Positions 36,871 to 64,000 of a stretch of DNA of 64,000 nt are shown one piece after another. The notes under the pieces are model-generated. The model had not been told where the DNA came from. It made no database searches and was given only the letters and a program-made list of their open reading frames with translations. Both the position numbers and the translations under genes were made by a program. Position 1 is the first letter of the stretch. Each line of letters starts with the position of its first letter. The stretch comes from Candidatus Eiseniibacteriota bacterium. Lineage in GTDB: Bacteria > Eisenbacteria > RBG-16-71-46 > CAIMUX01 > VGJL01. The stretch spans positions 1,280,001 through 1,344,000 of the forward strand of contig CAWBWI010000001.1 in the NCBI GenBank assembly GCA_963792585.1, given 5' to 3'.

Positions 36871-36924
36871 CCTCGCGCCTCCTGACGTGGAGCCTTCACG
36901 GGTGGGATTTCGATGGGGGGACCT

Positions 36925-36967
36925 TGCGCCCAGGAGGATTTGAACCCCCAACCTTCTGATCCGTAGT
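36925..36967 (-). mobile_element. att junction: displaced 3' half of tRNA-Arg(ACG)
   Basis: Minus strand ACTACGGATCAGAAGGTTGGGGGTTCAAATCCTCCTGGGCGCA gives the anticodon loop (ACG), T-arm and acceptor 3' strand; tRNA similarity stops at the anticodon loop; integrase is 0.7 kb away. Confidence 0.88.
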
Positions 36968-36977
36968 GAGAAAAGAC

Positions 36978-37184
36978 GCTACCCTACGGAGTCTCCTGGA
37001 ATCTCGACTACCCATCGCAACCTTTCTATTGACCCTGTGTTCACTGGGTCCGAAGCTACCATGCGAAGTCAGGAGGTTTCGGGGGCTGCCAGCATCGAAA
37101 TGCTACCCAGGCGCTACCCAGCGAACCCTCTGACCCAGTCAGGCAGGCGAACCCCGAAACCCGCTACCCAAGATACTGGGTAGC
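36978..37184. repeat. GCTACCCA repeats, putative integrase arm-type sites
   Basis: GCTACCCT 36978, ACTACCCA 37007, GCTACCCAG at 37102 and 37113, GCTACCCA 37163 inverted with TGGGTAGC 37177. Confidence 0.65.
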
Positions 37185-37290: not shown

Positions 37291-37653
37291 ATGGCTGAGA
37301 TCATTGACTTCCGCACCGCCGTAGACAAGCTCCATAGCCCAAAGCAAGCGGCACGCCAAAGCGAGCCCGCTAACCCGGGAGCCATATACGTTCCCAAACG
37401 CCCCAATCCCGACACCCCGCGCACGAGGGTAATTCCCGAGGGGCTCATGCGGCACTGGTATATCTGGTGCTTGGCGCATGAGCTGACCGGTGGAGTCGCC
37501 GCAATCGGCAAACAGAGGGTGGGTTATTGCGACACCTCTCGGTGGTTCTGCGAGAGCCTTCAGGACGTGATGCATAAGTTCCCCCCCACGGAGGAGCAGA
37601 AGGATCGGTTCCGCGGATGGTTCAACAGCCCGTTCGTGGAGCCGTCAAAGTGA
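37291..37653 (+). CDS. Hypothetical protein coupled to the integrase
   Basis: GAGGAGG RBS; GTGA overlap with the integrase start. Confidence 0.6.
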   Translation: MAEIIDFRTAVDKLHSPKQAARQSEPANPGAIYVPKRPNPDTPRTRVIPEGLMRHWYIWCLAHELTGGVAAIGKQRVGYCDTSRWFCESLQDVMHKFPPTEEQKDRFRGWFNSPFVEPSK

Positions 37654-38909
37654 AGTTCACCGACCGGCAGGTACTGAACCTGAAATGCCGACCGGAGCGG
37701 TACGAGGTGTGGGAGGCGCGGGGGCTTGGTCTCCGAGTCTCCCCCACCGGCCGCAAGACCTGGATTTTCCTCTACCGATTCCACGGCCGACCCCGCCGCA
37801 TGACCCTCGGCCACTATCCCGATCTATCGGTCGCCGAAGCGCACAAGAAGCACGCGGCCCACCTGGTCGATGTCGAGAAGGGCATCGACCCGGGCGCCGT
37901 CGCTATCGAGACGAAGCGGGAACTCAGGAAAGCCGAGACCATCAAGGACCTGGTCGAGGACTACATCAAGCTCTATGCGAAGCCGAACAAGAGGAGCTGG
38001 CGGGACGACGAATGGATGCTCGAGCGGGAGGTTGTCCCTCTGTGGGGCAATCGCAAGGCGCGAGAAATCACCAGGCGCGACGTGGTCCGGCTGCTCGATG
38101 CGATCGTCGACGGATCCCGGAAGGTCACGGCCCCGACAACTGCGCGCAAGCATAGCCCACGCAAGAAACGAGCCCCGCGGCCGGCCCCGTACCTCGCGAA
38201 TCGGGTCTTCGCCTGTGTGCGTAAGATGTTCGCTTGGGCAGTCTCCAGGGACATGCTCCCCACCTCCCCATGCCTCTACGTCCCCCGGCCGGCGCCGGAA
38301 CGAACCCGAGACCGCGTCCTGACCGAGGAGGAGCTCACGAAGCTCTGGCGAGCCCTCCAAGCCGCTCCCGCAACGGATCGGGTCCACTACGTCGTCCAGC
38401 TCGTCTTGTGCACAGGACAGAGGCCCGGAGAGGTTCTCGGCGCCCGATGGGAGGAGATCGACCAAGAGGCAGGATGGTGGACGATACCCGCGGAGCGAAG
38501 CAAGAACGGCAAGGTTCATCGCGTACCGATCACGCCCCTCGTTGACGAGTTGCTGGAGGCGGCCCGCGCTCTCGACCCTGATAGTCCCTGGGTCGTCCCA
38601 TCGACGCGGGTGGCGAAGAAGAAGTATCCACTCCAGGAGAGTTCCCCCCGCAGGTGGATCGAATGCTTCCGGGCGGCTACGGGCGTCGAGAAGTTTCGGC
38701 CGCATGACCTCAGGAGAACGGCAGCCACGGGCATGACGGAGCTCGGGGTCCCCCGCTTCATCGTGGGCCGGCTCCTCAACCACTCAGAGGGTGGGGACGT
38801 CACTGCGATCTATGACAGAAACCAGTATGACAAGGAGAAGCGGGAAGCCCTCGAGCGATGGTGCGACCGGCTCGGCAATCTGTCGGTCTTTGCGGGGAAT
38901 GCCAAATGA
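37650..38909 (+). CDS. Tyrosine integrase, P4/IntA type with N-terminal arm-binding domain
   Basis: GLGLRVSPTGRKTW...MTLGHYPDLSVAEA; catalytic TGQRPGE, KN, HDLRRT, LNH, IY. Confidence 0.95.
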   Translation: MKFTDRQVLNLKCRPERYEVWEARGLGLRVSPTGRKTWIFLYRFHGRPRRMTLGHYPDLSVAEAHKKHAAHLVDVEKGIDPGAVAIETKRELRKAETIKDLVEDYIKLYAKPNKRSWRDDEWMLEREVVPLWGNRKAREITRRDVVRLLDAIVDGSRKVTAPTTARKHSPRKKRAPRPAPYLANRVFACVRKMFAWAVSRDMLPTSPCLYVPRPAPERTRDRVLTEEELTKLWRALQAAPATDRVHYVVQLVLCTGQRPGEVLGARWEEIDQEAGWWTIPAERSKNGKVHRVPITPLVDELLEAARALDPDSPWVVPSTRVAKKKYPLQESSPRRWIECFRAATGVEKFRPHDLRRTAATGMTELGVPRFIVGRLLNHSEGGDVTAIYDRNQYDKEKREALERWCDRLGNLSVFAGNAK

Positions 38910-41590: not shown

Positions 41591-41833
41591 GTGCCCGATC
41601 CACCCCATTTCCTGCTCGCGTCCGACCTATCCAGGCGATGGGGCGTGCCCCCCTGGATGATCCACCGATGGCGACGGGCAGGACTGGGCCCGGCGTGGCA
41701 GAGGATCGGCGCGCGCGTTTTCTACCGCCTGCCCGCCGTGGAGGCATGGGAGGCCGGACCAATGCGCGGGATCAGCGTGCGGGCACGTGGGCGGGTGCGG
41801 CAAGCCCTTCAGGAAAGACACGGGTCCTTTTGA
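41591..41833 (+). CDS. Small HTH DNA-binding protein (excisionase-like)
   Basis: GGAGG RBS; FLLASDLSRRWGV...RWRRAGLGPAWQRIGARVFYRLPAVEAWE. Confidence 0.75.
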   Translation: MPDPPHFLLASDLSRRWGVPPWMIHRWRRAGLGPAWQRIGARVFYRLPAVEAWEAGPMRGISVRARGRVRQALQERHGSF

Positions 41834-41920
41834 CGGGATTCCAGGTGGGTGACGCGCAAGCGCTGAATTCATGCAGCGTGGACAAGTTCGACCGGTTGAC
41901 ACCGGTTGACACCGATGACC
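41822..41920 (+). other. Candidate lambda-type cos region (cosQ-like heptamer plus downstream repeats)
   Basis: GGGTCCT(TT) at 41822 equals lambda cosQ; tandem ACCGGTTGAC x2 at 41891-41910 resembles terminase-binding repeats. Confidence 0.45.
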
Positions 41921-41956: not shown

Positions 41957-42610
41957 ATGGAACCACACGGGTCCCCTGATCCTTGGGTCGCGGAGCGCAT
42001 CCAACTCGTTGCGCCAGACGCCTTGAGACCCTACGCGGCCAACCCACGGACCCACAGCGAGGAGCAGGTCGCCCGCATCGCCGCGAGCATCATCGAGCGG
42101 GGCTTCACCAACCCTATCCTGGTTGACAGCGAGGGAGGGGTGATCGCCGGCCACGGTCGACTCCTGGCAGCCAAGAAGCTCGGGCTGGAACACGTCCCGG
42201 TGATCGAGTTGGGCCACCTGAGCCCAGCCCAGAGGCGCGCCCTGGTCATCGCGGACAACAAGCTGGCCCTGGATGCAGGGTGGGATGAGCCGCTCCTGCA
42301 GGCGGAGCTGAGGGCGCTGGAGGCGGACGGCCTGACCCTCGCTTCTGCGGGATTCTCGGATGGGGAGCTGGCAGAGATGGAGGCTCGGCTCTTCGCGCCA
42401 CCCGAGCATGACGGGGACCTCGGCGGGTCACCGGGCCTCGGGACCCCGGTCATCTCCTTCACGATCATCTTCGACGATCAGGAGCAGCAGGACTACTGGT
42501 TCGCCTTCGTCCGCTGGCTCAAGGGCGTGCCCAGCGCCCCGGATGCCACGGTCGCCTCGAGGTTGATCGCCTACCTGCAGGCAGTCTCTGACACGAGGCG
42601 GCAAAGGTGA
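41957..42610 (+). CDS. ParB/Srx N-terminal domain protein of the type usually fused to phage methylases; methylase domain absent here
   Basis: PYAANPRTHSEEQVARIAASI..GFTNPILVD...IAGHGRLLAAKKLG...ADNKLALDAGWD. Confidence 0.88.
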   Translation: MEPHGSPDPWVAERIQLVAPDALRPYAANPRTHSEEQVARIAASIIERGFTNPILVDSEGGVIAGHGRLLAAKKLGLEHVPVIELGHLSPAQRRALVIADNKLALDAGWDEPLLQAELRALEADGLTLASAGFSDGELAEMEARLFAPPEHDGDLGGSPGLGTPVISFTIIFDDQEQQDYWFAFVRWLKGVPSAPDATVASRLIAYLQAVSDTRRQR

Positions 42611-43659
42611 GCCGGCAGAAGGTCTACCTCGAGACGGACGTTCTCACGGAGGCTCGGCGCCGGATGCACCACGTCTACGACATCTTCGACTCCGTGGTCG
42701 TCATGTTCTCAGGCGGGAAGGACTCCCTGGCGACCCTCCATCTGGTCAAGGGCGTTGCCGCGGAGCGCGGAATCGGGACCGTCAACGTGATCTTCAGGGA
42801 CGAGGAGCTGATCCCGGAGTCCGTGATTGACCTCGTGGACTCCTACCGGCAGCTCCCGTGGATCAGGATGCTCTGGTTCGCCGTTCCCCTGCGGTCCAGC
42901 GAGTACGTCCTGGGCGTCGCCAAGGAGTACATCCAGTGGGACCCCGCTCGGCGACACGTTCGGCCCGCGCCCCCGTGGGCGATCCGCCTGCCCGAGGGCG
43001 ACAGGCGGGTGTTCGATCAGTACACGATGGACGAACTCGAGGCGACCTACTTCCGCGGGAAGATCGCATTCGTCACCGGCATCCGAGCGGATGAGTCCCT
43101 TATCCGCTACCGATCCTGTGTGAACAAGCTCAATGAGAACTACATCGTGGCGAGCCTGGCCAGCCGCAACGTCCAGCTGGTCAGGCCGATCTACGACTGG
43201 ACGGAGAATGACGTCTTCAAGTTCTTCATGGACCACGGCGTCACCTACTGCCCTCTGTACGACCATCAGCTCTGGGCCGGCACGGCCCTGAGAGTCAGCA
43301 CGCCTCTGCACTCTGAGGCATCCAAGCGGTTCCACACTCTGAAGCTCTACGCGCCCACCCTCTATGCCCAGGTGATCGACGTCTTCCCGGAGATGCTCAC
43401 CCACGAGCGGTACTACCGGGACCTGGACCGAGCTTCGATCATCGAGCAGTACGGCAAGAGCTTCGATGGGGTGAGGGCGTGGATCTTCGAACACATCGAG
43501 GATGAGAAGGTTCAACGCCAGGCCCTCATGCGTCTGGATCACATCCGCACCGCCGCCCGCCGATCCCCAGGGAGCTACCCGGCCGATTACGTCCTGAAGT
43601 ACATGATGAGCGGAACGTACAAGCGCAACATCCTACCGCTGAGGAAGGAGAAACCATGA
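42607..43659 (+). CDS. PAPS-reductase-like PP-loop protein (IbrA/YbdN family)
   Basis: DVLTEARRRM, FSGGKDS, GIRADES..R, PIYDW, RVSTP. Confidence 0.88.
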   Translation: MSRQKVYLETDVLTEARRRMHHVYDIFDSVVVMFSGGKDSLATLHLVKGVAAERGIGTVNVIFRDEELIPESVIDLVDSYRQLPWIRMLWFAVPLRSSEYVLGVAKEYIQWDPARRHVRPAPPWAIRLPEGDRRVFDQYTMDELEATYFRGKIAFVTGIRADESLIRYRSCVNKLNENYIVASLASRNVQLVRPIYDWTENDVFKFFMDHGVTYCPLYDHQLWAGTALRVSTPLHSEASKRFHTLKLYAPTLYAQVIDVFPEMLTHERYYRDLDRASIIEQYGKSFDGVRAWIFEHIEDEKVQRQALMRLDHIRTAARRSPGSYPADYVLKYMMSGTYKRNILPLRKEKP

Positions 43660-43874
43660 AAGGCACGCCAAGCCCGGAGGAGCACCCAATGCCGGAGCCA
43701 CTGCTGACCGTGGGCTATATCGCGCGGCTCTTCGGAGTTCCGGTCTCGTGGGTCTACTCGAAAGCGGAGCAGGGCGAGATCCCGAGCTACAAGATCGGCC
43801 GATACCGCCGCTTCGTTCGCGCCGAGATTGAGGCCTGGTTGGAGACGCAGAAGCAAGGAGGGGTCCGAGAATGA
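43656..43874 (+). CDS. HTH_17/excisionase-family DNA-binding protein
   Basis: LLTVGYIARLFGV..SWVY...GEIPSYKIGRYRRF...EIEAWL. Confidence 0.85.
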   Translation: MKGTPSPEEHPMPEPLLTVGYIARLFGVPVSWVYSKAEQGEIPSYKIGRYRRFVRAEIEAWLETQKQGGVRE

Positions 43875-44440
43875 AGAGCTCACCTCCCGAACTCTGCCAG
43901 AGCGATGACGGCACATCGAGCGAGTGCCCCGATCCCATCAATCGGGTCCGCTGGAGACCGGCCGGCGAGCTTGACGCCAACTTCTGGAACCCAAATGTCG
44001 TCTTCAACCCCGAGCTGCGCCTTCTCGAGCAGAACATCCTGAGGCATGGCTGGATCCAACCCATCCTCGTGAACCCCAACGGCATCATCATCGACGGCTT
44101 CCACCGCTGGCGCCTGAGCCTGGAGAGCAAGGCCCTGCAGGAGCGCTACCACGGGATGGTCCCGTGCGTGGTCCTCGAGATGACGGACGGAGACGCCATG
44201 CTCCTGACCGTCCGGATGAACCGGGCGCGTGGCACCCACGTCGCCGGCAGAATGGCGACCCTCGTCCAGCGGCTCCTCGATGAACATCACTACGCGCCCG
44301 AGCAGATCGCGGCGGAGATCGGCGCGACCGCCGATGAAGTCGCGCTGCTTTCACAGAAGAACGTGTTCAAGGCTCGCAACCTCCCGGCCTACCGATACAG
44401 CAAGGCATGGGTCCCAACGGAAGATGGGAAACGCTCCTGA
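43871..44440 (+). CDS. ParB-like nuclease domain protein (IbrB/YbdM family)
   Basis: ANFWNPN, GWIQPIL, IIDGFHR, TVRMNRARGTH. Confidence 0.88.
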   Translation: MKSSPPELCQSDDGTSSECPDPINRVRWRPAGELDANFWNPNVVFNPELRLLEQNILRHGWIQPILVNPNGIIIDGFHRWRLSLESKALQERYHGMVPCVVLEMTDGDAMLLTVRMNRARGTHVAGRMATLVQRLLDEHHYAPEQIAAEIGATADEVALLSQKNVFKARNLPAYRYSKAWVPTEDGKRS

Positions 44441-44609
44441 ACTCCGCGCTCTGATTGGCGCATGTGAAGGTGCTCTTGAACTGCAGGATTCACAATACAT
44501 TCAGGACGCGCGCAGAATCCTGAACTCTGCACTCATCATGGAAACAAAGATGGCGAATGACGTTGCACTCCCGACTCAGCGTCCGAGACTTATAGCAAGG
44601 AGGTGCAGC

Positions 44610-44939
44610 ATGCACACTGACACGATGCAGTTGCAGTTGACGAGTGAGAGCGCGGTTGACCGATTCGGACTGGCCTTCGCCGAGGCCTGCATGAAGGCGA
44701 CCGTCGATGAGGCACTCCGGCGCGGGTGGACCGGCGAGCGGTTGAGAGCAGAGGCGGAGCGGTTCTGTGACGTGATCCGCGAGGAGGCGGTCATTGAAGT
44801 GAAGTGGGTTGCTGACCAGGGGCGTGAGGTTCTCGACCTGGTGGACGCGGGCAGGATGGGCCCCGGGTACCTGGACATCACCTTCAAGGCCGGCGTCGCC
44901 GCAGTGGTAGCCAGGTCCATGAAGCGGATGGAGGCCTAA
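44610..44939 (+). CDS. Hypothetical phage protein
   Basis: AAGGAGG RBS before ATG 44610. Confidence 0.65.
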   Translation: MHTDTMQLQLTSESAVDRFGLAFAEACMKATVDEALRRGWTGERLRAEAERFCDVIREEAVIEVKWVADQGREVLDLVDAGRMGPGYLDITFKAGVAAVVARSMKRMEA

Positions 44940-44942
44940 CCG

Positions 44943-45188
44943 ATGAGGGCCTGCGAAGTGTTCGAGATTGAGCAGGACGAGCGCCCGACGGGACGCTACG
45001 CCTGCGGCGAGGCCTTCAATGCGAGTAGGCGCTGGCTGCGCCGCGTGGAGAGGGAAGGGCGCAGAGTCCGCCGTTACACGCTTGACGCGGCTTTTGACGC
45101 GATCCCCGAAGGCACCGAGTTGTGGGCCTTCCCTAACGGTGGAGGCTGGTCCCTGTGGGCGGTGGTGAAGCCAAGGCGGGAGAGCTGA
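44943..45188 (+). CDS. Small hypothetical phage protein
   Basis: GGAGG RBS; tight operon spacing. Confidence 0.6.
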   Translation: MRACEVFEIEQDERPTGRYACGEAFNASRRWLRRVEREGRRVRRYTLDAAFDAIPEGTELWAFPNGGGWSLWAVVKPRRES

Positions 45189-45189
45189 G

Positions 45190-45855
45190 ATGGCGTCCGG
45201 AATGTTCACCTACTGGCTCGAAGGACGGGACAACCCGGCCGATCCGTGGAGGCGGTTGAAGAGCGCAGAGTTCCAAGCCCGTGGCGACTCCAGGGCTCTG
45301 CAGCTGTTCCGGACAGCGAAGCGGAGGCCGACCTACCGACTCTGGAAGCTGCGGTTGATGTGCGATGAGGGGAACGGGTTGAGCGGGCAGGTGGGGTCCG
45401 AAGTGACACGGGCGACATACCGGAAGGAGGTTCCAGTGGAAGACCCGGGAGCGGTCAAGCTCCAAGCAGTGGACTACGAGGCGGCCAGCAAATACAAATC
45501 CGCGGCTGCCAGGGAGCACGTGAGCATCTCAGAGACGCAACGCACTTACTGGTTCTATGTGGTCAAGGGAGATGAGGGAGTGGTCGGCGTTGTGGGTTTG
45601 ATGCTGGTGTCCGGGGGCGCAGTGAGGATCAAGGGGGTCTACATACAGAAGGAGTTCCGAGGTCAGGGGATCGGGACCGCGGTGACGGACGCACTTGAGA
45701 CACACGCGGTCAATGAACTCCATGCAACGACGATCGAGGCCTACGCCTACAACCGGGCCTTCTACGAGGGGCGCAGCTACGAGGCGGTCGGAACGCGGCC
45801 GAACGGTGCGGTGCTGCTGCGCAAGAGGTGCAACGCATCCGCGGAGGCGAAGTGA
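45190..45855 (+). CDS. GNAT-family acetyltransferase (possible internal start GTG 45436)
   Basis: VVGVVGL...IKGVYIQKEFRGQGIGTA...FYEGRSY (motif A R/QxxGxG); AAGGAGG before in-frame GTG 45436. Confidence 0.82.
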   Translation: MASGMFTYWLEGRDNPADPWRRLKSAEFQARGDSRALQLFRTAKRRPTYRLWKLRLMCDEGNGLSGQVGSEVTRATYRKEVPVEDPGAVKLQAVDYEAASKYKSAAAREHVSISETQRTYWFYVVKGDEGVVGVVGLMLVSGGAVRIKGVYIQKEFRGQGIGTAVTDALETHAVNELHATTIEAYAYNRAFYEGRSYEAVGTRPNGAVLLRKRCNASAEAK

Positions 45856-46160
45856 ACCTGCTACTCAAGACCTGGGGGCACGAGATTGCACCCCTGGATC
45901 CTGATTCGGACATTCGATGCACGGGGGTTCAACCGAAGAAGGGCGAGCCGCGGTGCTCCGCGCGTGCGGTCTACCGCGCATGGGCGTGTTACGTGACCGG
46001 TCCGCGAGGACGCCACGGGCGGCGATCCATGAACTACTGCCCCGAGTGCGTCACGAAGTGGGCGCGCTGGATGGAGATTGATCCACCAGTCGTGAAGATG
46101 GACGAGATTGAAACCGAGGACCTGACGGTCACGGTGAACGGAGAGGAGGCACCCTTTTGA
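45852..46160 (+). CDS. Small Cys-containing hypothetical protein
   Basis: GTGA overlap; C...C...CPEC potential Zn ligands. Confidence 0.55.
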   Translation: MNLLLKTWGHEIAPLDPDSDIRCTGVQPKKGEPRCSARAVYRAWACYVTGPRGRHGRRSMNYCPECVTKWARWMEIDPPVVKMDEIETEDLTVTVNGEEAPF

Positions 46161-46903
46161 GCACGCGGCGTGAGCGATTAGAGCGTAGGGCGGAGCGGCG
46201 CCGGCAGTGGGCGGGGCGCGCGAGCCACAAGTCCGCGGCTGGATTCGAGAGCGCCCGGAGGATCGCCGACGCGATCCCCTTCGGGCAACCGATCCTAGTT
46301 GGGCACCATTCGGAGCGGCACGCGCGCCGGGACCAGGAGCGGATCGAGAACGGAATGCGCAAGGGGTGCGAGATGGCCACGAAGGCTAAGGACCACCTTT
46401 CGAAGGCGGACGGGATCGAGGCGGCGCTCGAGCGGGCGGTCTTCGATGACGATCCGGACGCGATTGAGCGCCTCGAGGAACGCATCGCGAAACTGACCGC
46501 GAAGCGGGACCTGATGAAGGCCGCGAACGCATGGTGGAAGAAGCATGCAACGATGGCCGGGTTCGAAGGCGTCACACCGGAGCGGGCGGCCCGGATGGAT
46601 GACGACATCCGAGCATCCTGGGACAAGCGGCCCTGGCCTCCCTACTCCCTGACGAACATCGGCGCGCGCATCCGGACGGATCAGAAGCGAATCGAACAGG
46701 TGAGGGCGCGCCAGGCACGTCTTGAGAAGGCGGAGGAGGCCGGCGTCTTGGTCGAAGATGCCGGCGAGGGCTACGTCCGCGTGACGTTCCCGGAGTTCCC
46801 CGGCCGCGAGATCATCCAGGGGCTTAAGGCTGCGGGGTTCTGGTGGAGCAATCCAAGCTGGGCCGGAAAGGCTGAGAACCTTCCGGAAGGGGTGAGGCCA
46901 TGA
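46157..46903 (+). CDS. DUF3560 domain protein
   Basis: IPFGQPILVGHHSERHARR; DDPDAIERLEERIAKL; LKAAGFWWS. Confidence 0.85.
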   Translation: MSTRRERLERRAERRRQWAGRASHKSAAGFESARRIADAIPFGQPILVGHHSERHARRDQERIENGMRKGCEMATKAKDHLSKADGIEAALERAVFDDDPDAIERLEERIAKLTAKRDLMKAANAWWKKHATMAGFEGVTPERAARMDDDIRASWDKRPWPPYSLTNIGARIRTDQKRIEQVRARQARLEKAEEAGVLVEDAGEGYVRVTFPEFPGREIIQGLKAAGFWWSNPSWAGKAENLPEGVRP

Positions 46904-47205
46904 CGACTCCCGAACAGCTCGAACGGTTCCGCGCGCTCCTCGAGCAGGAGCAGAACGAGAAACTCGCGAGGGATTACCCGGGTGTCGGCCCCTACATCGC
47001 GGAGGTAAAGCTCGGCTCCAAGTTCGCGAAAGTGGACATCGGGCCACCGAGCAACATGAGCGGCCGCTACATGGTCGAGCTCGGAACAGGCGACATCTAC
47101 GGGATCAAGGGCTACGGCGTGGTCCACCGCGGGCACAGGTACGGGAACATCCAACACGTCGAGCAATGGGACTGGAGCGGCTACACCGGATGGAGGCGCC
47201 CTTGA
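46900..47205 (+). CDS. Small phage protein
   Basis: ATGA overlap; GSKFAKV...MVELGTGDIY...RYGNI pattern resembles small phage proteins. Confidence 0.65.
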   Translation: MTTPEQLERFRALLEQEQNEKLARDYPGVGPYIAEVKLGSKFAKVDIGPPSNMSGRYMVELGTGDIYGIKGYGVVHRGHRYGNIQHVEQWDWSGYTGWRRP

Positions 47206-47636
47206 AGCCCTATAACGGCTTCACACCGGAGCAGAGGCTGAAGGCGCTCTACTGGCTGCGCAAGCAGCAGAAGGATGGTCTGAGAGCACGGCCGGTGATC
47301 TGCGATGTCTGTGGACAGACTCAAGGTACGATCGATGACCACTCAGAGGACTACAGCGAACCGTTCGGCGACAACATCGGACGCTTCGGGCTCTGCTTCC
47401 GCTGCCACATGATCGTCCACTGCCGATTTCGATCCCCGGAATCCTTTGAGACCTACAGGCGACTGATCATGACGGGCATCCGATTCGCACCGGTATATGG
47501 CAGGAACTTCAAAGTGATTGTAGGCGAGCACCTCGACAACCAACTGACCCCGACGTTCACGACGCATGCGCCCCCGGACACGGACCTCCTGGAGAGAATC
47601 GCCGCCGGCGAGTTCGGACCGAAAACGGGAGACTGA
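47202..47636 (+). CDS. HNH-like zinc-binding protein upstream of the terminase
   Basis: CDVC...DDHSEDYS...LCFRCHMIVH; TTGA overlap. Confidence 0.6.
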   Translation: MKPYNGFTPEQRLKALYWLRKQQKDGLRARPVICDVCGQTQGTIDDHSEDYSEPFGDNIGRFGLCFRCHMIVHCRFRSPESFETYRRLIMTGIRFAPVYGRNFKVIVGEHLDNQLTPTFTTHAPPDTDLLERIAAGEFGPKTGD

Positions 47637-47640
47637 GCGC

Positions 47641-48147
47641 GTGGCCAGAGAGCTGGTAAACCAGGCTGAGTACGCTCGCCGGCGAGGAGTGAGCCGGCAG
47701 GCCGTCTCCAAGGCTATCCGGAGCGGGCGCATCAAGCTGGTACGCGGCAAGATCGACACCACGCTGGCGGACGCTCAATGGCGCGCCAATACGGACCCGG
47801 CGCCCGAGTTCGGGGTCAAAGACGTCGATGAGGGACCCAAGGCGAAGGAGGGGCTCCCTCCGTCGAGCTTGAGCTACACCACGAGCCGGGCGATTCGGGA
47901 GGCTTACAGCGCTCGCCTCACCCGCCTTGAGTATGAGGAAAAGGTCGGGGAGCTGATCAGCGCGGACAAAGTCAGGCTCCAGGCTTTCAACTCCGCGCGA
48001 AGGGCGCGGGACCTGCTCCTCGCGATCCCGGACCGGGTGGCCCCGATCGTTGCCGGGATCCCCGATCAACTTGAGTGCCACCGCATCCTGCTTCAGGAAA
48101 TCCACCGCGTCTGCGATGAGTTGAGCAATGCCCCCCCCAGAGATTGA
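47641..48147 (+). CDS. Terminase small subunit (Nu1-like)
   Basis: NQAEYARRRGVSRQAVSKAI winged HTH; RLEYEEKVGELI...ARDLLLAIPDR; overlaps TerL. Confidence 0.82.
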   Translation: MARELVNQAEYARRRGVSRQAVSKAIRSGRIKLVRGKIDTTLADAQWRANTDPAPEFGVKDVDEGPKAKEGLPPSSLSYTTSRAIREAYSARLTRLEYEEKVGELISADKVRLQAFNSARRARDLLLAIPDRVAPIVAGIPDQLECHRILLQEIHRVCDELSNAPPRD

Positions 48148-49984
48148 GGTCTACGAATCCGCATTCGCCGAAGGGTGGGCAGCGGAGCCCATCCTCACGG
48201 TCAGCGAATGGGCGGACGCCCACCGGATGCTCTCCTCGAAGGCCAGCTCGGAGGCGGGACACTGGAGGACGGACCGGACCCCGTACCTCCGGGAGATCAT
48301 GGACAGCCTGAGCGCCGTCGATCCCGTCCAACGGGTGGTCTTCATGAAGGGCTCCCAGCTCGGAGCCACGGAATGCGGGAACAACTGGATCGGCTACATC
48401 GTCCACCATGCTCCCGGCCCGGCGCTCATGGTCCAACCGACCGTGGAGATCGCCCGCAGGGTGAGCAAGCAGCGCCTCGCGCCCATGATTGAGGCGACCG
48501 CGGTGCTCAGTAAGCGGGTTTCGGAGCCGAGGTCCAGGGACTCAGGGAATACGACCTTCGTCAAGGAGTTCCCAGGAGGTCTGCTGATCCTCACCGGATC
48601 CAACTCTGGCGCCGGCCTACGGTCCATGCCGATCCGCTACCTGTTCTGCGATGAGATCGATGAGTACCCCGGCGATGTCGACGGCCAGGGGGATCCGATC
48701 AGTCTCGCGGAGAAGAGGACCGCGACCTTCGCTCGGCGGAAGGTGTTCCTTGTGAGCACCCCGACGATCATGGACTTCTCCCGCATCGAGCGGGAGTTCA
48801 AGCGCTCTGACCAGCGTCGGTACTACGTTCCCTGCCCCGGGTGCGGGAACTTCGACTGGATCCGCTGGGAGAACGTCCACTGGCAGGAGGGTGAGCCGGA
48901 GACGGTCACGCTCGCATGCGTCGCGTGCGGGGAGCTGGTCTCGGAGGGTCAGAAGACGGAGATGCTCGCTCGAGGGGAGTGGCGACCGACCGCGGGTGGC
49001 GACGGCCGGACCCGAGGCTACCACCTGAGCGGTCTCTACTCTCCCGTCGGCTGGAACTCATGGGAGGCGATCGTCCGGGAGTTCATCTCCGCCAAGCAGG
49101 ACCCGTTCAAGCTCAAGACCTGGATCAACACGATCCTCGGGGAGACCTGGGAGGAGAGAGGCGAGACGGTCAATGACTCCGTGCTCTTCGCCCGCCGGGA
49201 GGAGTATCCCGCGGAGGCCCCAGCCGGCGCCCTCGTCCTGACTGCCGGCGTGGACATCCAGGATGACCGGATCGAGCTGGAGGTCGTCGGCTGGGGGCCC
49301 GGCGAGGAGAGTTGGGCAATTGACTACCGCGTCCTTTATGGCAGCCCGGGCGAGCAGCCGGTGTGGACGGCGCTATCGGACTTCTTCGAGCAGACCTACG
49401 AGAACGAGGCCGGGGAGAGGGTGCGTGTCTCCGCTGCCTGCATTGACTCCGGCGGTCACCATACTCAGAACGTCTATCACTTCTGCCGGAGCCGGCGGGC
49501 CCGGCGGATCTTCGCGATCAAGGGAGTGTCCGGTGTCGGTCGCCCCGTCGTCTCCTCTCCGATGCATCGCAGGAGCGGTCGCAACCGGCGCCCCGTGGAG
49601 CTGTTCATGGTCGGCGTGGATGAGGCAAAGGGTCTGATCTACTCCCGCCTGAGGCTCAAGGAGCCCGGCCCAGGCTACTGCCACTTCCCCATCCGGAAGG
49701 AATTCGACGAGGAGTACTTCGCCCAGCTGGCGGCCGAGAAGATCATGACCCGATATCACAAGGGGTTCCCACGGCGCGAGTGGGTCAAGACCCGTCCACG
49801 GAACGAGGCTCTGGATTGCCGGGTCTACGCTCTTGCAGCATTGGAGCTATTGAATCCTGTATGGCCGGCGCTTGTGAGGCGAGCGGCGGAGCGGGCGGCA
49901 GCAAGATTAGGCCCGCCGAAGCCGGCGGCAACGAGGGAGCCGCTCCGGCGGTCGCAGAGAAGGAACTGGGTCAACTCGTGGTAG
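48128..49984 (+). CDS. Phage terminase large subunit, lambda GpA family
   Basis: TVSEWAD, TPYLREIMD, KGSQLGAT, CDEID, STPT, CPGC/CVAC, AGVDIQDDR, IDSGG, RNEALDC. Confidence 0.95.
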   Translation: MPPPEIEVYESAFAEGWAAEPILTVSEWADAHRMLSSKASSEAGHWRTDRTPYLREIMDSLSAVDPVQRVVFMKGSQLGATECGNNWIGYIVHHAPGPALMVQPTVEIARRVSKQRLAPMIEATAVLSKRVSEPRSRDSGNTTFVKEFPGGLLILTGSNSGAGLRSMPIRYLFCDEIDEYPGDVDGQGDPISLAEKRTATFARRKVFLVSTPTIMDFSRIEREFKRSDQRRYYVPCPGCGNFDWIRWENVHWQEGEPETVTLACVACGELVSEGQKTEMLARGEWRPTAGGDGRTRGYHLSGLYSPVGWNSWEAIVREFISAKQDPFKLKTWINTILGETWEERGETVNDSVLFARREEYPAEAPAGALVLTAGVDIQDDRIELEVVGWGPGEESWAIDYRVLYGSPGEQPVWTALSDFFEQTYENEAGERVRVSAACIDSGGHHTQNVYHFCRSRRARRIFAIKGVSGVGRPVVSSPMHRRSGRNRRPVELFMVGVDEAKGLIYSRLRLKEPGPGYCHFPIRKEFDEEYFAQLAAEKIMTRYHKGFPRREWVKTRPRNEALDCRVYALAALELLNPVWPALVRRAAERAAARLGPPKPAATREPLRRSQRRNWVNSW

Positions 49985-57949: not shown

Positions 57950-60900
57950 TCACGAAGCCAACACCTGCACGAACTCCGCGACAACAGCGATCTCGTTCTT
58001 GTCCACGTTTTGGAGAACGAGCGGCTCGAATCGCGCGTCCGTGCTGTCTGGCTTCAGGCGGATGATGCCGTGCCGCCATCCGCCGTCCGGCGAGGCCACC
58101 TTCTCGCTCTCGTAGACCTTGACCGTGTAGTGACCTCCATGCTCCGGATCTGCAATGTCGCGGTGTTGGACCAGGAGAACCCGTCCCTGCCGGCTGCCGG
58201 CGACAGGCTGGCGGAAGATGCAGTAGGACCCGTTTGGGATTCGTCGGTTCATCGACTTTCCGACAAGTTGCGCCACGAACATGCCATCGGCGATTCTGCG
58301 GTCCGTTACTTCGAGCCACCCAAGCTCCTCAGGCACTTGGCCCTCACTGAATGCGCCGGCGGCAGCCCTGAGGTCATACACGGGAAGATGACGGACGAAC
58401 GGTTCGGCCGCCTGGCGAGGAACCAGGCGAAGAACCGGAGCCACGCGCAGAAGGTCCGAGCGGTCAAGACGCTCTGCCAAGTCCCGAAGACCCTGCTCAA
58501 TCCGTTCAGGCCAGAGGATCACCACGCGGTAGCCAAGCGCACGCAGACGTCGCTCCAGTTCATCGTCGCGACGCTGCACGTGCTCCTGGTGATGTGGGCT
58601 TCCGTGCACCCAGACCACGATTCGGTTCGGGTACAACAGGTCCGCCTCCGTGACAGCGATCCCCTCACCATCACGCACCACGCAGTGTTGCCCAGCGGGT
58701 TTCGGAAACCCACGCCGCTCGAGGTCCTCGATCACACCAGGCTCGGCTCCAATGGCGTTCGCCTTGAGCTCTTCCCAGCCGAGCTCCACATCCTCTCCCG
58801 TCAAGTCCAGATCTGATTCGAGCAGCCTCTGCAGCACCTCGACCACGCCCCGCCGATCGAGAAGATCGTGGTATCCCTGGTTATAGTATGAGAGCAGACA
58901 GTCGTAGCAGGCCCTCTCGCATGCGCCCTCGAGTTCCCGCCCCGATTCGGGGTCCACGTGGAGGAGCTCCAGCGCCCGACGCGCGGTGCGCCGCCACCCT
59001 TCCGCCTCCCATAGATTCCGTAGTAGACCCGTGCCACCTTCGTCTGTCTCGTAGAACAGAACGCGCTTCCGAGATCCCTCGCCCGGAACGTCGAAGAGGT
59101 GGGCTCCGAGCTCCGAGTCCTCCGCACCATACGCGATCTGGAATCCTCCGAGCAGCGCATATGCGAGCGACCAGCCAAACCGCTCGCCGTCATTGGGGGG
59201 GACGGGCAGCTCAAGGGTCACGAGATCGTGGACGCCGTGGACGTAGAGGAGCACTTCCCGGTGGATGTCTTCCTCGGTGCCGCCAGCCGGACACCGGTTG
59301 CGGCCGTTCTCATCCACGTGGGCCTCTTCACCCCCCTCGCTGGCAATCCATGCCCTGCAACGCTCGCAGTAGCGGAAACCGATCTTCGTCCGAGGCGCGG
59401 AGTCGCGATTGACGAGCAGCAGCTCTCCTTGGTGCGATCCCGTGACGGCTCCGAGTACGCCACTTACTTTCGCTCAAGAGTGATCCCTGCTGGGTCACCG
59501 GTCCGAGCCGGTAGTAGGGTCGGACATCGAAACCACGCCGCATCCGCTCTTCTTCATCCGCAGAAATGCGCCCCGACCGCCGAGCCACGGCATCCGGCAG
59601 CTCGAGCACGCGGTCCCGGGCGTGGGCGGCGAGCAGATTCGGCCGCAGATGTTGCAGGCCGCCGCCTGGTTGACCTGATCGCCCAGGAAGAAGTTGCCGC
59701 ACTCGCAGGTCTTGAGGCGGCTCCAGTGATGGGCCTGGCCGCGCGCCCGCGGCTGCGCCTTAGCAACCCGGTACCGCCCTCCGCGGAAGTAGATCATGTT
59801 GAGCGGCGCGAACTCGCGCAGCGCGATGGCCCGGGCTCGAGGCTTCGACTCTTTGCGGTCGGTGAAGTATGCGTTCGAAGCCCGGCGCGGGAATGCGTAG
59901 TTTGGCAGGAAACCCCGTGAGCCCAGGTAGCGGTAGGGATAGAAGTCCCCGTGCCCTTCGCGCATGTCGGCGAGCCGGGCGCTGACCGCCCGCTGCCGAA
60001 TCTCATCCTCGCGCGTGACGCCCGCGTGAGCTTGCCGGGCATGAATCTCGCGGAGCTCCTCCTGAAGGCGCCGATACTCCTCGCGGAAATCGTCGTGCGC
60101 CCGATCGAACTCCTCAGCAAAGCGATCCACGAGCCGCGCGAGGTCCGCCATGGGCACGCCGGCGCGCTCCAGCTCCTCACCAAAGGCATTCCGCGCCGCC
60201 TCGAGGATCGTCGGTCCCGCGCTCGCCACCTTGCGTGACAACTCCTCACCAAAGCTGTCGAACATCGGCAGCCCTGCGATGACATCGGCTTCGTTCTCCA
60301 TCCGCAAGTATTCGCGGCTCTTGCGAGGCAACCGGAGATCGGCGATCTCGAGCACCAGCGCGTTCACGTGTGCCTCGAGCAGCGATCGGTTGTCGAGGAG
60401 GAAACGCGGCGGGGCGATGCGTCCGGAGATCACGCGATCGGGAAAGCGGAAGAAGTACTGGTCGTGTCGACTATAGGGCCCGAAGGTGCCGCAGAAGGTA
60501 ACGATAATCGCGGGCTGGCCGTGGCGACCCGCCCGACCGTGTCGCTGAGCGTAGTTCGCCGGCGAGGGCGGGACGTTGCGTAGAAACACCGCCGAGAGGC
60601 CGCCGATGTCGACTCCGAGCTCCATGGTCGGCGTACAGACGAGGACGTTTAGAGGATCATCCGGCTTCTGGAAGCCGGTCTCGTACTTTCGCCGGTCGTC
60701 GCCTGATACCGCCGCGGAGTGCTCCTGAGCCAGGACTCGGGGTCGAGCCTCCGGCGGGAGGGTGTACTCGGCTCGGAAGAAGTGTGGACCCCATTCCTGC
60801 TCCCGTAGCTCTACCTTGATGCAGTTGGGACACGGTTGTGGGCGAGTCAGCTCCCAGCGCAGACGGCAGCGCGGGCAAACGAGCGCCGTTCGATCTACGC

Positions 60901-63721
60901 AGGCGCGGAGAAGTACGCGTCCCTCGGAAAGCAGCAGATACCGCCCCCCACGTCCCTGTCGCTGGACGAGCAACTGCACTTCCCTGCTGCCGAGCAGCGT
61001 CGCCAGCGTGCGCACAATCCCACGCGCCGCATCCGCGTCCACGCCCAGCTGGCAACGTAGCCAGCGCACGAGGGGCGGCTGGTAGGGAGACCCTTCCACC
61101 CCGGCGAGCCGCCGCACCTGGAAGTTCCAATCGTCCGCGGGAAGCTCGTCGCTGAAGACCGTGGGGCGGAACGGCGGCATCCCATCCTCGTGAAAGAGCA
61201 CGTCGGGATTGAGGCGCGCGATGACGCTGGAGCGTACTTCGTCTGCATCGAGGAGAATGTCCGAGTCCAAGGCGCCGGCACGGCGGAATGTATCGAGAAA
61301 CACACGCAGGAGATCACCGCGGCTTTCGCGGGGCACGCCCGTCAGGGCACGATCCATCCAGAAGGCATCGTCGCGCGCGAGGTCGTTCAGGCCGTCGTAC
61401 CCCACCGAGAGGAGTCCCACCATCTCGAGGCTCGGCTGAACCCGCCGCGGCCGGCCGATCAGTTCGCCGATCGCCCCGAGCCCGAGGTAACGCTTGTAAG
61501 CGGCCTCCACGCCTCGCGCAGCCCGTCCCACGCGGACGTCGGCCTCGGGCGCGAAGGGCGGCAGCGTCGCGGAGTCGCTCATCGACTCGAAGGCGACCCG
61601 CCCGGTGTCCACGAGTGTCACCTCGCCGGCCCTCGTCAACCCGCTGTGGAGCGCCCGGCGGAAGTGCATCCGGTGGTCAACGTCTGTGAGATGGGCCGAC
61701 TGGAAGGCGGCGTCCTGTTGGTTGTCGGTAAAGGCGATCACGCGCGACTTCACTGGATCACGAAGCTCGCTGATCGTACGAGTGACAAGGAGATCTGTAG
61801 CCGTCGCGCGACCCACCGCCCCGACGACGGAGAACTTGTTGAACTCACGAATCCGCCGATCGTAGTGGATGCCACAGAATGGACAGAGGAGGAGCGGCGC
61901 CTCGACGAGTGCCATGTCGCGCGTGGCGCCATGTCCGCAGTCCGTGCCAACACCGGCGCACGCCGGGCACACGGAGACGTTCCGTGGGACGGCGCCTTCC
62001 ATCCCGGCACGCGGCTGCCCGTTCCTCCTGACAGCCGCCTCGTCAGGAGGCGCAATGTCTGGATCCCAGGGCTCTGGAAAGACATAGACTGCGCGGGCGC
62101 CCTGTTCGGGCTCACCCCCCGCGAAATCACGCGGGGCGAACCGCTGGCCCCCCGGCTCCTCACGCAGCTCGGCCACCGCACACTCGACGCCGCACGCGGC
62201 GCAGAATACTAGCGGGAAGGCCGGAACGTTCTCGTCCGCCTCGCATTCAGCACAGACCCGCGCCCCGCTCGCCGAAAGATGCCAGTTGCCAAGGCACGCG
62301 GTCACTGGCTGTCCCTGGCTGAAGAAAGTGTGGGCCTTCGAAAGAAGAAGAGGCACATCCGTGCCCTCCGGGCTTGGAACGTGGGTTTGTTCAGCCGTGA
62401 CAATGGCCGCAAGGAGCTCACGCGAGGCATCAGCCGCGCTTGCGTCTGGCCGTCGGGTGTCCCGGTACAAGGCGACCAGGTCGTCCCAGGCGCGCCCCGG
62501 GGAGGGTCCACATTCCTCGTCGGGGACGAGACTCCGTTCAAGGAAACTGACGGTCGCTTGGCGCCGCAGGTCCTCAGCCGTAGCGTCCGCGCGGCCGCAG
62601 AGCGCGTCCCTGAGGCGATGCGTGGCACCCGGGTCACCGCGGACCGCACGGCGGATCCACTCTTCCTCCATCAGGATCCGCTCCGGCAGGGGATCGGGTT
62701 CAGGCGGAGTGAGATGCGCGGCGTAGGTCTCGGAAACGACGTCGTCAGGAGAGAACATCTCACCAAACAGGTCGGAGGCGAAGCGGGCGACCGAGGCGCG
62801 CGACGCCTCTGGTGACCCGCTGTCGATTGTGGCCGATGTGCCGACGCACCGCAGTTTCCCACGAGTCTTCGTGTGTTCCTTGAGCCGCCGAACCAGGCAG
62901 GCCACGTCTGCGCCGCCGCGGCCCGAATGCGTGTGGATCTCATCAAGGACCAGAAAGCGAAGATCCGAGAGCTGTCCGAAGGGGAACACCGAGCGGTCCT
63001 CGAAGCGGGTGAGGATCAGCTCGAGCATCACATAGTTCGTGATTAGGATGTCGGCACCACAGCCGTCGCGCAGGTCTTGCCGGGAGATCACCTCGGAGTC
63101 CCAGGGGGTGTCCCGCCCGGTCGCCTCGCGAAACGCACGGAGCGCCGACTCAGGGTCGTCGCGCAGATCCCTTGTGTAATTGCAGACGGTGAGCCCCGTG
63201 CCGACCAGCCGCTGGGCCAGGTCCTCGTACTGGGAGTTGGCGAGCGCGTTCATCGGGTAGATGAAGAGCGCCTTCACGCCGCGACGGTCGCGCGGCCCGA
63301 CGCCCTGCGCCTCGTTCGCGGTGAGCGCTGACGAGACCGCGGGTACGGCGAAGCAAAAGGACTTCCCTGACCCCGTGCCTGTCGCGACGACGCAGTTGCG
63401 CTGCTCGCGGAGCAGGACCCGCCATGCCTCGCTCTGGTGCCGGTAGGGCGCGATGGGGCCGCTCGATGGATCGTCGCGCTTACGGCGAAAGATGGCCGGA
63501 ATTCTGGCATGGAGCAGCCCCTCCGTGACTAAGATCTCCAAGCTCTCACCCGGCTGGAAACGGCGGCCGAGCGTGAGGAAGGGAGCCCGCCACAGGAAGC
63601 GCCCCTCCTCGATCCGCTCGTGGAGCCAGGCCCGGATCCGATCGTTCCGGATCGTCTGGTAGGTTTCGACGTAGCTCCGGTAGGCGCTCTGGAGCTCGCG
63701 GAAGACTTCGAGGGGATTCAT
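57950..63721 (-). CDS. SF2 DEAD/DEAH helicase + DUF1998 (MrfA-type Zn) + DUF559/Vsr-like nuclease + S24 peptidase fusion; frameshifts near 59640 and 59460
   Basis: PYRHQ, TGTGSGKS, YPMNALANSQ, DEIH, SAT, TPTMELGVDIG, QRHGRAGR; EGGTG...CERACYDCLLSYYNQ; ADLLY...VHGSPH...RD...LRALGYRV; AAG...KSM...TVK. Confidence 0.85.
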
Positions 63722-64000
63722 GCGATCCTCCGGTAGGCGGCGAGGCAATCCTTCTTGAACTTGTAGCTACCGTGCTCGCTGGTCTGGACCCGAGCCATCA
63801 CCTCAAAGGAGTCGAGAACGCTCTCGTACTGCGCGGCGGTGACCCCGTACGCGTGGGCGACGAGAGCGTCGAGTTCCACGTCCAGGGAATACCGTTCTTC
63901 CGGGTCCCACAGGTGGGGCTCGACTCCGAAGAGGCGCGCCACTGAGTGGCTTGTGAGCGAGAGCCTGCGAGCATGTTCGGCGATGCGTGAGTCGAGACCG
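63718..64000 (-). CDS. C-terminus of an Eco57I/type IIG-like (DrmMI-like) DNA methyltransferase, partial
   Basis: ELDALVAHAYGV...VLDSF...GSYKFK..CLAAY tail typical of such MTases; ATGA overlap with the helicase; catalytic motifs lie outside the window. Confidence 0.65.
   Translation of the reverse strand, partial: GLDSRIAEHARRLSLTSHSVARLFGVEPHLWDPEERYSLDVELDALVAHAYGVTAAQYESVLDSFEVMARVQTSEHGSYKFKKDCLAAYRRIA

Follow-up and report, generated by a model that had tools for sequence, protein, structure and literature searches.

A widespread five-part phage cassette with a PP-loop enzyme, two ParB-fold proteins and an acetyl- or methyltransferase in a single slot: a candidate system for marking DNA

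In the genome of a Candidatus Eiseniibacteriota bacterium (assembly GCA_963792585.1), positions 1,280,001 to 1,344,000 of contig CAWBWI010000001.1 make up a stretch of 64,000 nucleotides, hereafter the window, in whose numbering coordinates are given. Five of its genes, all on the forward strand, are one copy of a widespread five-part phage cassette. In order, they code for a ParB-domain protein, ParB1 (41957..42610, with an ATG start); a PP-loop ATP pyrophosphatase of the 3'-phosphoadenosine 5'-phosphosulfate (PAPS) reductase/FAD synthase fold, related to IbrA and YbdN (42607..43659); an IbrB/YbdM-like ParB with a CTPase-type domain (DGFHR) and a helix-turn-helix (HTH) (43871..44440), hereafter IbrB; a GNAT acetyltransferase that occupies a swappable slot (45190..45855, domain at 45436-45855); and a Zn-ribbon HNH-like protein with the pattern YNG..R..CxxC..HxEDY..CxxCH..H (47202..47636). 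It seems to us somewhat probable that these proteins place a ParB-assisted, ATP-driven mark on DNA, which is then capped by an acetyl or a methyl group; in this proposal we infer both the substrate and the product. An initial annotation of the same DNA had proposed here a non-methyl DNA-modification system, possibly linked to packaging; the HNH gene, which it left outside the interval that it delimited, is a member of the cassette.

Related loci were gathered with the PP-loop protein or its alignment, together with four annotated phages, and later with alignments of the HNH-like protein and of a methyltransferase described below. Because the best 80 of 354 confirmed matches were retained from the viral scan and the best 80 of 169 from the metagenome scan, the survey favours close relatives. 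The set seeded with the PP-loop protein comprises 158 loci at 40% identity or more; BLAST comparison with the window proteins finds IbrB in 150 of these, the HNH-like gene in 117 and the GNAT in 48 (and, in the dereplicated set described below, in 40 of 96 loci), which bears out the earlier proposal that the GNAT is conserved together with the PP-loop/ParB pair. DUF3560 is found in 5 of the 158 loci. The excisionase-type HTH that the initial annotation had counted within the cassette (43656..43874, HTH_17, PF12728) is an insertion private to the window copy: neither it nor four other accessory open reading frames (ORFs) of the window were found in any of the 158. The common order is ParB1, PP-loop, IbrB, slot and HNH-like gene, with some shuffling on the locus maps; IbrB is present in 95 of 96 clusters, and the C-terminal domain of ParB1 in 100 of the 104 clusters with enough upstream DNA. 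The association also holds in reverse, the PP-loop gene being found in 45 of 49 loci seeded with the methyltransferase and in 60 of 75 seeded with the HNH-like protein. Three of the four misses in the former set and most of the 15 in the latter lie at contig ends, while two loci (L244 and L293) have no PP-loop gene despite more than 3 kb of upstream DNA. None of 38 more distant PP-loop loci carries the GNAT, methyltransferase, HNH or ParB1 C-terminal-domain families.

The slot is occupied in two ways, by the GNAT or by a methyltransferase dependent on S-adenosylmethionine (SAM), a protein of 180 residues (phrog_11826) with an invariant ARR motif. In an enlarged set of 231 loci with a full-length PP-loop gene, re-fetched contigs included and enriched for methyltransferase and HNH by the seeding, 86 loci have the GNAT, 111 the methyltransferase, none has both and 34 have neither (13 of these 34 end within 2 kb). 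Grouped at 95% identity, they form 127 clusters, 50 with GNAT, 50 with methyltransferase, one mixed, 16 with neither and 10 truncated. Among the 96 representatives with 2.5 kb of downstream DNA, 40 carry each transferase, 16 neither and none both, against 16.7 joint cases expected under independence; a Fisher p value for this exclusion overstates it, because kin are not independent. On a PP-loop tree built by a quick method there are 17 changes between GNAT and methyltransferase, 12-13 of them forced by well-supported (starred) branches. The mixed cluster illustrates a clean swap: its GNAT locus L003 and its methyltransferase locus L001 share 92.6% identity along 3,589 bp that stop where IbrB ends, are unlike each other in the slot and realign inside the HNH gene. 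As the slot holds one or the other transferase and has been swapped repeatedly, the GNAT belongs to the cassette; and as a methyltransferase stands in its place in 40 of the 96 loci, the system as a family is not a non-methyl one. For two unrelated transferases that are repeatedly exchanged and never found together, the simplest view is that they compete for one acceptor, a product of the invariant core. Inspection by eye of the slot-empty loci listed, without a library scan, revealed no third capping enzyme. In Phaedrus (L014, 73-2606), ParB1, PP-loop and IbrB genes stand directly before the terminase, and the 12 kb examined contain neither a cap gene nor an HNH gene; loci of this type, from the subcluster B3 mycobacteriophages, are a natural 'core only' control.

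The PP-loop protein displays SGGKDS at residues 35-40, matches PF01507 (E 3e-14, 53.8 bits against a cut-off of 22.5) and matches phrog_2302 over its full length (residues 1-349, E 1e-108). It has two cysteines (171 and 215) and no CxxC, which agrees with the earlier remark that an Fe-S cluster is not obvious. Its model (mean predicted local distance difference test score, pLDDT, 91.7) has human FAD synthase as best structural match (Z 18.3, root-mean-square deviation 3.2, 170 aligned residues), followed by CysD (Z 16.7), the APS/PAPS reductases (Z 14-15), then TilS, NcsA, GMP synthase and NAD synthetase (Z 11-13); these alignments span residues 6-241, without the C-terminal helical part. A base modification in the manner of TilS was also considered and is ranked lower, because of its Z of 11-13 as compared with 17-18 for FAD synthase and CysD. 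Near-invariant in 113 diverse homologues are R19, SGGKDS, D65, E67, W111, R115, R119 and GxRxxESxxR, as well as PxxDW, D202, Y218, R229 and P261, so that six near-invariant arginines accompany the PP-loop, while the most conserved cysteine column reaches 61%. To judge from model and alignment, this is a PP-loop family without Fe-S and redox cysteines, whose closest fold is that of FAD synthase and CysD.

It is hardly credible, then, that the protein is a true PAPS/APS reductase, an auxiliary gene of sulfur metabolism with unrelated neighbours, even though its PF01507 score is above the cut-off, its PHROG carries that label and its fold matches CysH. The C-terminal redox motif of CysH, ECG[LI]H, occurs in none of the 113 homologues and CxxC in one; the NCBIfam CysH models score 19-27 bits, far under their cut-offs of 154-254; the ParB, transferase and HNH neighbours are fixed; and the cassette protein is the sole PF01507 match in a genome that is 84% complete. 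The initial annotation had likewise set it apart from sulfonucleotide reductases, and the cysteines support that view.

A phosphorothioate-type system is a closer comparison. Here an enzyme akin to DndC, SspD or TdpC would use sulfur of the host, and the slot enzyme would methylate or acetylate that sulfur, or the mark would allow the phage to pass Dnd/Ssp restriction. Weak matches to DndC profiles fit with this, as do two published observations: tdpC alone suffices for phosphorothioation (PMC12914056), and escape from Dnd is reportedly promoted by a PAPS-reductase homologue from a phage (PMC13551039). Yet the Fe-S centre of DndC, with its three cysteines, and the cysteine dyad of that enzyme (PMC10853773) have no counterpart in the PP-loop family, the TIGR03183 score is 20.6 bits against a cut-off of 290.4, and there is neither a cysteine desulfurase nor a Dnd/Ssp NTPase among the recurring neighbours. 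We regard this explanation as distinctly unlikely.

The partners of the enzyme are the two ParB-fold proteins. By alignment, ParB1 (PF02195; phrog_723 over residues 9-210) consists, without an HTH, of a variable ParB domain and a small conserved C-terminal domain of 55 residues (42440-42601 in the window), which matched no named family. Its matches to ParB-methyltransferase models are confined to their N-terminal part (in PADLOC MTase_II, positions 4-141 of 436; with phrog_498, limited to residues 9-145), and it has no PF01555 nor any N6/N4 methylase domain, so that the earlier description of a ParB-N of the ParB-methyltransferase type without its methyltransferase was accurate. IbrB scores below the PF02195 cut-off, matches phrog_2159 over residues 16-187 (E 7e-67) and is 36% identical to Escherichia coli YbdM over 165 aa; its nearest solved relatives are ParB, Noc and Spo0J, and it has a ParB-CTPase-like domain and an HTH. 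Its DGxHR motif is one that we take to be SerK/SbnI-like, and a serine-kinase role was accordingly envisaged and dropped, as no structure of the SerK/SbnI type is present among 12 PDB matches. In gene order, the PHROG matches of the window cassette are phrog_723/498, phrog_2302, phrog_2159 and phrog_1249.

Proteins of this kind might also form a transcriptional switch, with the PP-loop/ParB pair co-activating late prophage genes and the GNAT or the methyltransferase tuning the response. Databases name the homologues 'co-activator of prophage gene expression IbrA/IbrB', there is homology to YbdN and YbdM, the cassette stands at the head of a late operon and IbrB has an HTH. Against this, the cassette also exists in lytic phages without the context of a lysogenic switch (Laroye, Phaedrus), two transferases that replace each other, beside an ATP-pyrophosphatase site that is invariant, would be more chemistry than a regulator calls for, and prophages could be activated secondarily, when DNA is damaged or marked; we find a switch improbable.

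In the mechanism that we favour, the cassette would mark newly made phage DNA in two steps, the core adding a group and the slot enzyme capping it, with protection from host nucleases as the purpose. The two ParB-fold proteins would load the ATP-using PP-loop enzyme on DNA, IbrB (ParB and HTH) and ParB1 (ParB and C-terminal domain) serving as clamp and activator as the phage ParB does for T-dioxygenases. Like FAD synthase, CysD and the members of the DndC/TdpC branch, the enzyme would adenylate an oxygen of the phosphate type, for which DNA itself would be the simplest substrate; without Fe-S or persulfide cysteines, the nucleophile that displaces AMP would be something other than sulfur, and an amine is the simplest candidate because GNATs and SAM methyltransferases both readily modify amines. 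The cap would be optional, as 16 of 96 loci do without it, and the HNH-like protein would either nick DNA for entry or cut DNA that is in the wrong state. That the core partners have DNA-clamp folds, that there are precedents both for the ParB and for the PAPS-reductase domain, and that the cysteines of DndC are missing leads us to favour a DNA mark with an optional cap. For the chemistry of the mark, adenylation of phosphate followed by displacement with an amine looks the likeliest, as a tentative proposal. More doubtful still would be a second modification of the DNA backbone besides phosphorothioate, where the PP-loop enzyme, clamped by ParB, adenylates the phosphates, AMP gives way to an amine, acetyl and methyl are swapped in an arms race and a matched HNH reads the cap, giving the phage a restriction-modification logic of its own.

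In the HNH-like family, C46, C49, H59, C77, C80, H81 and H85, among them the Zn-binding CxxC pairs and the general-base His, are kept in 99-100% of 109 sequences, in a site that is unusual because the residue before H59 is variable and there is no conserved Asn; the conserved E61 could act as a substitute in the metal site. An endonuclease match (phrog_2340) is obtained for 34 of 46 members, the match with the HNH of IscB is weak (E 0.015) and the nearest named clusters are HNH. The gene lies on the opposite strand yet beside the cassette in 17 of 99 clusters (L026, L033, L065, L069-L075, L103, L104 and others). Of 72 loci whose slot is filled 70 have the gene, as do 6 of 16 whose slot is empty, which, over 88 loci, gives 70 with cap and HNH, 10 with neither, 6 with HNH only and 2 with cap only.

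The latter figures bear on another explanation, that of a counter-defence aimed at something else than DNA: a nucleotide, a cofactor or a protein would be adenylated, and the slot enzyme would cap the product, or would silence the HNH-like protein as an immunity protein. FAD synthase, the closest fold, adenylates a small molecule, the methyltransferase fold is of the small-molecule/peptide type and the solved relatives nearest to the GNAT acetylate amino acids, amines and proteins; further, slot type changes 8 times on the HNH tree as compared with 14 on the PP-loop tree (70 loci, with a short HNH alignment), so that the former tracks the slot more closely. Adjacency alone could explain this sorting, however, and the 6 loci of 88 that have an HNH without a cap gene are disallowed for a strict toxin-immunity pair. 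Against it, too, two ParB-fold partners, one with an HTH, are found in nearly every locus. A non-DNA target is in our opinion unlikely.

To be sure, a number of facts weigh against a capped DNA mark. The same GNAT relatives count here, as does the methyltransferase model, a minimal class I fold with 50 entries at Z 13-15 and no standout, whose resemblance to small-molecule and peptide methyltransferases leaves room for a metabolite or a protein as what is capped. No amine-donor gene is conserved among the recurring neighbours of the cassette. When kinship is allowed for, the co-occurrence of cap and HNH comes down to 9 independent pairs with a median sign-test p of 0.06, which is not significant; it is only suggestive, and plain linkage may account for it as well. 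Linkage to terminase is not obligatory, for in Rhizobium phage L338C the cassette genes are surrounded by those of ribonucleotide reductase, and the 15 kb shown contain no terminase. The window copy is the most interrupted of the set, with 1,053 bp from IbrB to the slot (median 36) and 1,380 bp from the slot to the HNH-like gene (median 15), and its island has no head or portal gene downstream of the large terminase. Finally, no experiment on any cassette member was found in the literature, and the E. coli relatives YbdN and YbdM form a chromosomal operon, repressed by CitR and tied to the expression of citrate and sulfur genes (PMC9068703) rather than to phage DNA.

The place of the cassette in phage genomes is informative. 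For 85 clusters with 4 kb of downstream DNA the first two long ORFs on the same strand were scanned (76 had such ORFs, 9 none), and a large terminase was recognised in at least 60 of the 85, in keeping with the initial annotation. These 60 fall into phrog_2 (20), phrog_38 (12), phrog_9 (11), phrog_979 (9), gpA phrog_15 (5) and phrog_3717 (3); with at least five classes, and gpA in only 5 of 60, what the cassette accompanies is thus the beginning of the packaging operon and not gpA. The idea of a methylase slot ahead of gpA terminases therefore survives in part: it is seen in a sister element of the same genome, on contig C2, where genes for ParB-N and an N6/N4 methylase (two frames that overlap) precede the small terminase subunit (TerS) and a gpA-type large subunit (TerL) 71% identical to that of the window, while it is not specific for the cassette at large. 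Nor do ParB-DNA-methylase fusions and the cassette strictly exclude each other, for such fusions adjoin the cassette in L173 and L190. Upstream of ParB1 in the window lies a cos-like site (41822..41850, forward strand) with a GGGTCCT motif at 41822-41828, which we presume to be similar to lambda cosQ. Look-alikes precede ParB1 in 3 of 3 scorable gpA-type loci and 4 of 90 others, which are small numbers; a cos-type pattern gave no exact match.

The window copy belongs to an island of 35.8 kb bounded by a 44-bp repeat of tRNA-Arg(ACG), at 36924-36967 and at C1:1352725-1352768 (about 72.7 kb in window numbering). A tRNA-Arg call at 36925-37003 is the attachment remnant, 44-48 bp of which match the intact tRNA-Arg(ACG) 35.8 kb away. 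The left half has, in order, a tyrosine integrase (37617..38909, forward; PF00589, phrog_1), AlpA, an AAA_25 helicase, the cassette, TerS (47566..48147, forward; phrog_57) and a gpA-type TerL (48128..49984, forward; PF05876, PF20454), the last phage-like gene before a right half made of defence-type cargo on the minus strand, with SNF2 (DrmD-like), N6-methylase (DrmMI-like) and DruE-like helicase genes. This cargo, at 57950-63748 and C1:1343718-1350369 (L236), resembles a defence block of the DISARM/Druantia type; the MZB-bearing C-terminal part of its DruE-like DEAD helicase is in a separate ORF (57950-59317). Between 50058 and 57984, minus-strand ORFs of 548, 308, 231 and 349 aa are candidate unnamed defence genes, without Pfam, PHROG or PADLOC match where scanned. 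The lack of head genes in the island and of a PF05136 portal in the 84%-complete genome speaks against the earlier suggestion that the element packages its own DNA; as the island has no heads of its own, the only DNA within reach of the cassette would be that of the chromosome or DNA packaged by a helper. Two distant terminase-like matches (25-27% identity, C1:285015-285581 and 1920653-1921549) are possible helper prophages or remnants. The sister element (C2:385031-403522; L237, L238) is also head-less, with a serine-recombinase-like gene and, after TerL, defence-type cargo, and a lone further TerS is located at C2:366305-366892. In 60 related genomes, neither the PP-loop protein nor the GNAT has a match of meaningful score.

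Within the window, all the genes, overlaps and motifs described at the outset are present in the letters and the ORF list: ParB1 and PP-loop genes overlap by GTGA, PP-loop and HTH, then HTH and IbrB, by ATGA, and 750 bp separate the IbrB stop from the start of the GNAT ORF. This gap contains two small forward accessory ORFs of no known family (44538-44939 and 44943-45188; together 44538..45188), and three more lie between the GNAT and the HNH-like gene (45828..47205, forward), the middle one being DUF3560 (PF12083); no noteworthy repeat array is seen in the accessory region. By codon usage, ParB1, PP-loop, HTH, IbrB and GNAT ORFs all score positive, and the lowest score is that of the first 82 codons of the GNAT (PF00583/PF13673, with PF00583 in 40 of 40 family members). 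An in-frame GTG at 45436 behind an AAGGAGG ribosome site gives the length usual in the family, and is probably used as an internal start as well. The 82-codon extension (45190-45435) is kept in the closest homologue, P0122 (61% identity over 225 aa), and not in the rest of the family; it is perhaps a fused small accessory domain, and its conservation in P0122 means that either start may serve. Of 50,697 deposited phage records none matched the window GNAT, and only 4 database proteins did; its nearest homologue and a member of the nearest PP-loop cluster are both recorded on a contig of 195,114 bp, which suggests a possible second linked PP-loop/GNAT copy. As to sequencing runs, no RNA run was listed, and two DNA runs with small shares and short contigs bridged no cassette junction.

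Why should this matter? It concerns hundreds of phage genes that are labelled 'PAPS reductase' and counted as genes of sulfur metabolism, as well as the E. coli pair IbrAB/YbdNM. The either-or acetyl/methyl slot narrows the range of possible products, and cultured phages with harmless hosts offer natural controls, with the methyl version in Laroye (Arthrobacter) and 035JT001 (Bacillus subtilis) and no adjacent cap or HNH in Phaedrus, the window having the acetyl version. If true, a new DNA mark would add both an anti-restriction chemistry and a tool for labelling DNA. Iyer et al. (2013, NAR) are said to have predicted ParB- and terminase-linked DNA-modification systems in phages, lysidine-like ones included, and may have predicted this cassette. 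Phage PAPS-reductase homologues in general have been flagged as possible DNA modifiers (PMC13551039; 10.1101/2024.08.14.607894). Searches in the main text of papers turned up neither the five-gene cassette nor the slot exchange, and there is no account of the cassette in the available portions of PMC5513430 (on Laroye, with PAPS and ParB unmentioned), PMC4490671, PMC8813620, PMC12839542 and 10.1101/2024.08.14.607894.

Several known systems share pieces of this arrangement. The nearest is the adjacent pair IbrA/IbrB or YbdN/YbdM of E. coli, homologous and in the same order; IbrA and IbrB reportedly activate prophage eib genes, the original genetics being those of Sandt et al. in 2002. Compared with the K-12 proteins, the window PP-loop enzyme is 28% identical to YbdN over 274 aa, and DUF3440 (PF11922), present in YbdN at E 2.6e-32, is absent from it at E 0.1; the ParB1 C-terminal domain, the GNAT/methyltransferase slot and the HNH family were seen with the cassette clade and in none of the 38 more distant PP-loop loci. 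Mu Mom shares the GNAT fold with the slot acetyltransferase and is said to act alone and in a tRNA-dependent manner; no direct comparison with Mom was made and no Mom-named family appears among the Pfam, PHROG and PDB matches. The Mom-like role first imagined for the GNAT is unsupported. In the capped hypermodifications of phages, such as the acetylated aminomethyl-dU of PaMx11 or methylated preQ1 bases, a primary amine of DNA is finished by acetylation or methylation, whereas no gene of a thymidine or deazaguanine pathway recurs beside the cassette. ParB-N/DNA-methyltransferase fusions before gpA terminases (phrog_498) have the same ParB-N type, in the position seen in the sister element; by contrast, ParB1 has no N6/N4 methylase, the slot methyltransferase has another fold, small and of class I, and the two systems may coexist in one locus. 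With DndC, SspD, BrxP and TdpC the cassette shares a PAPS-reductase-domain ATP pyrophosphatase, the modifying enzyme of all four phosphorothioate systems (PMC12914056), and Dnd systems have in DndB a partner of the ParB superfamily (PMC10853773). The cassette differs in that its enzyme lacks the Fe-S cysteines and the dyad, that neither a desulfurase nor a Dnd/Ssp NTPase goes with it, that phages bear it and that an acetyl- or methyltransferase follows. An adjacent P-loop NTPase of the DndD/SspC/BrxC type is a criterion of phosphorothioation (PMC12914056), and the listed neighbour clusters, the 45 of highest frequency, include none, the P-loop proteins near the cassette being terminases and a phage helicase. 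No 5mYOX dioxygenase was found among the scanned window ORFs or the recurring neighbours; the ParB-dependent T-dioxygenases of phages nevertheless offer a precedent. On double-stranded DNA such a dioxygenase depends on a phage ParB that has a nucleotide-binding and a C-terminal domain (O'Toole et al., 2026, PMC13229309), and in these systems a ParB without DNA-binding domain adjoins an enzyme that modifies DNA after replication, with terminases and endonucleases as frequent neighbours (PMC13229309). To judge from its sequences, the cassette would set in place of the dioxygenase an enzyme with the fold of a PP-loop adenylyltransferase, and in place of one ParB, two.

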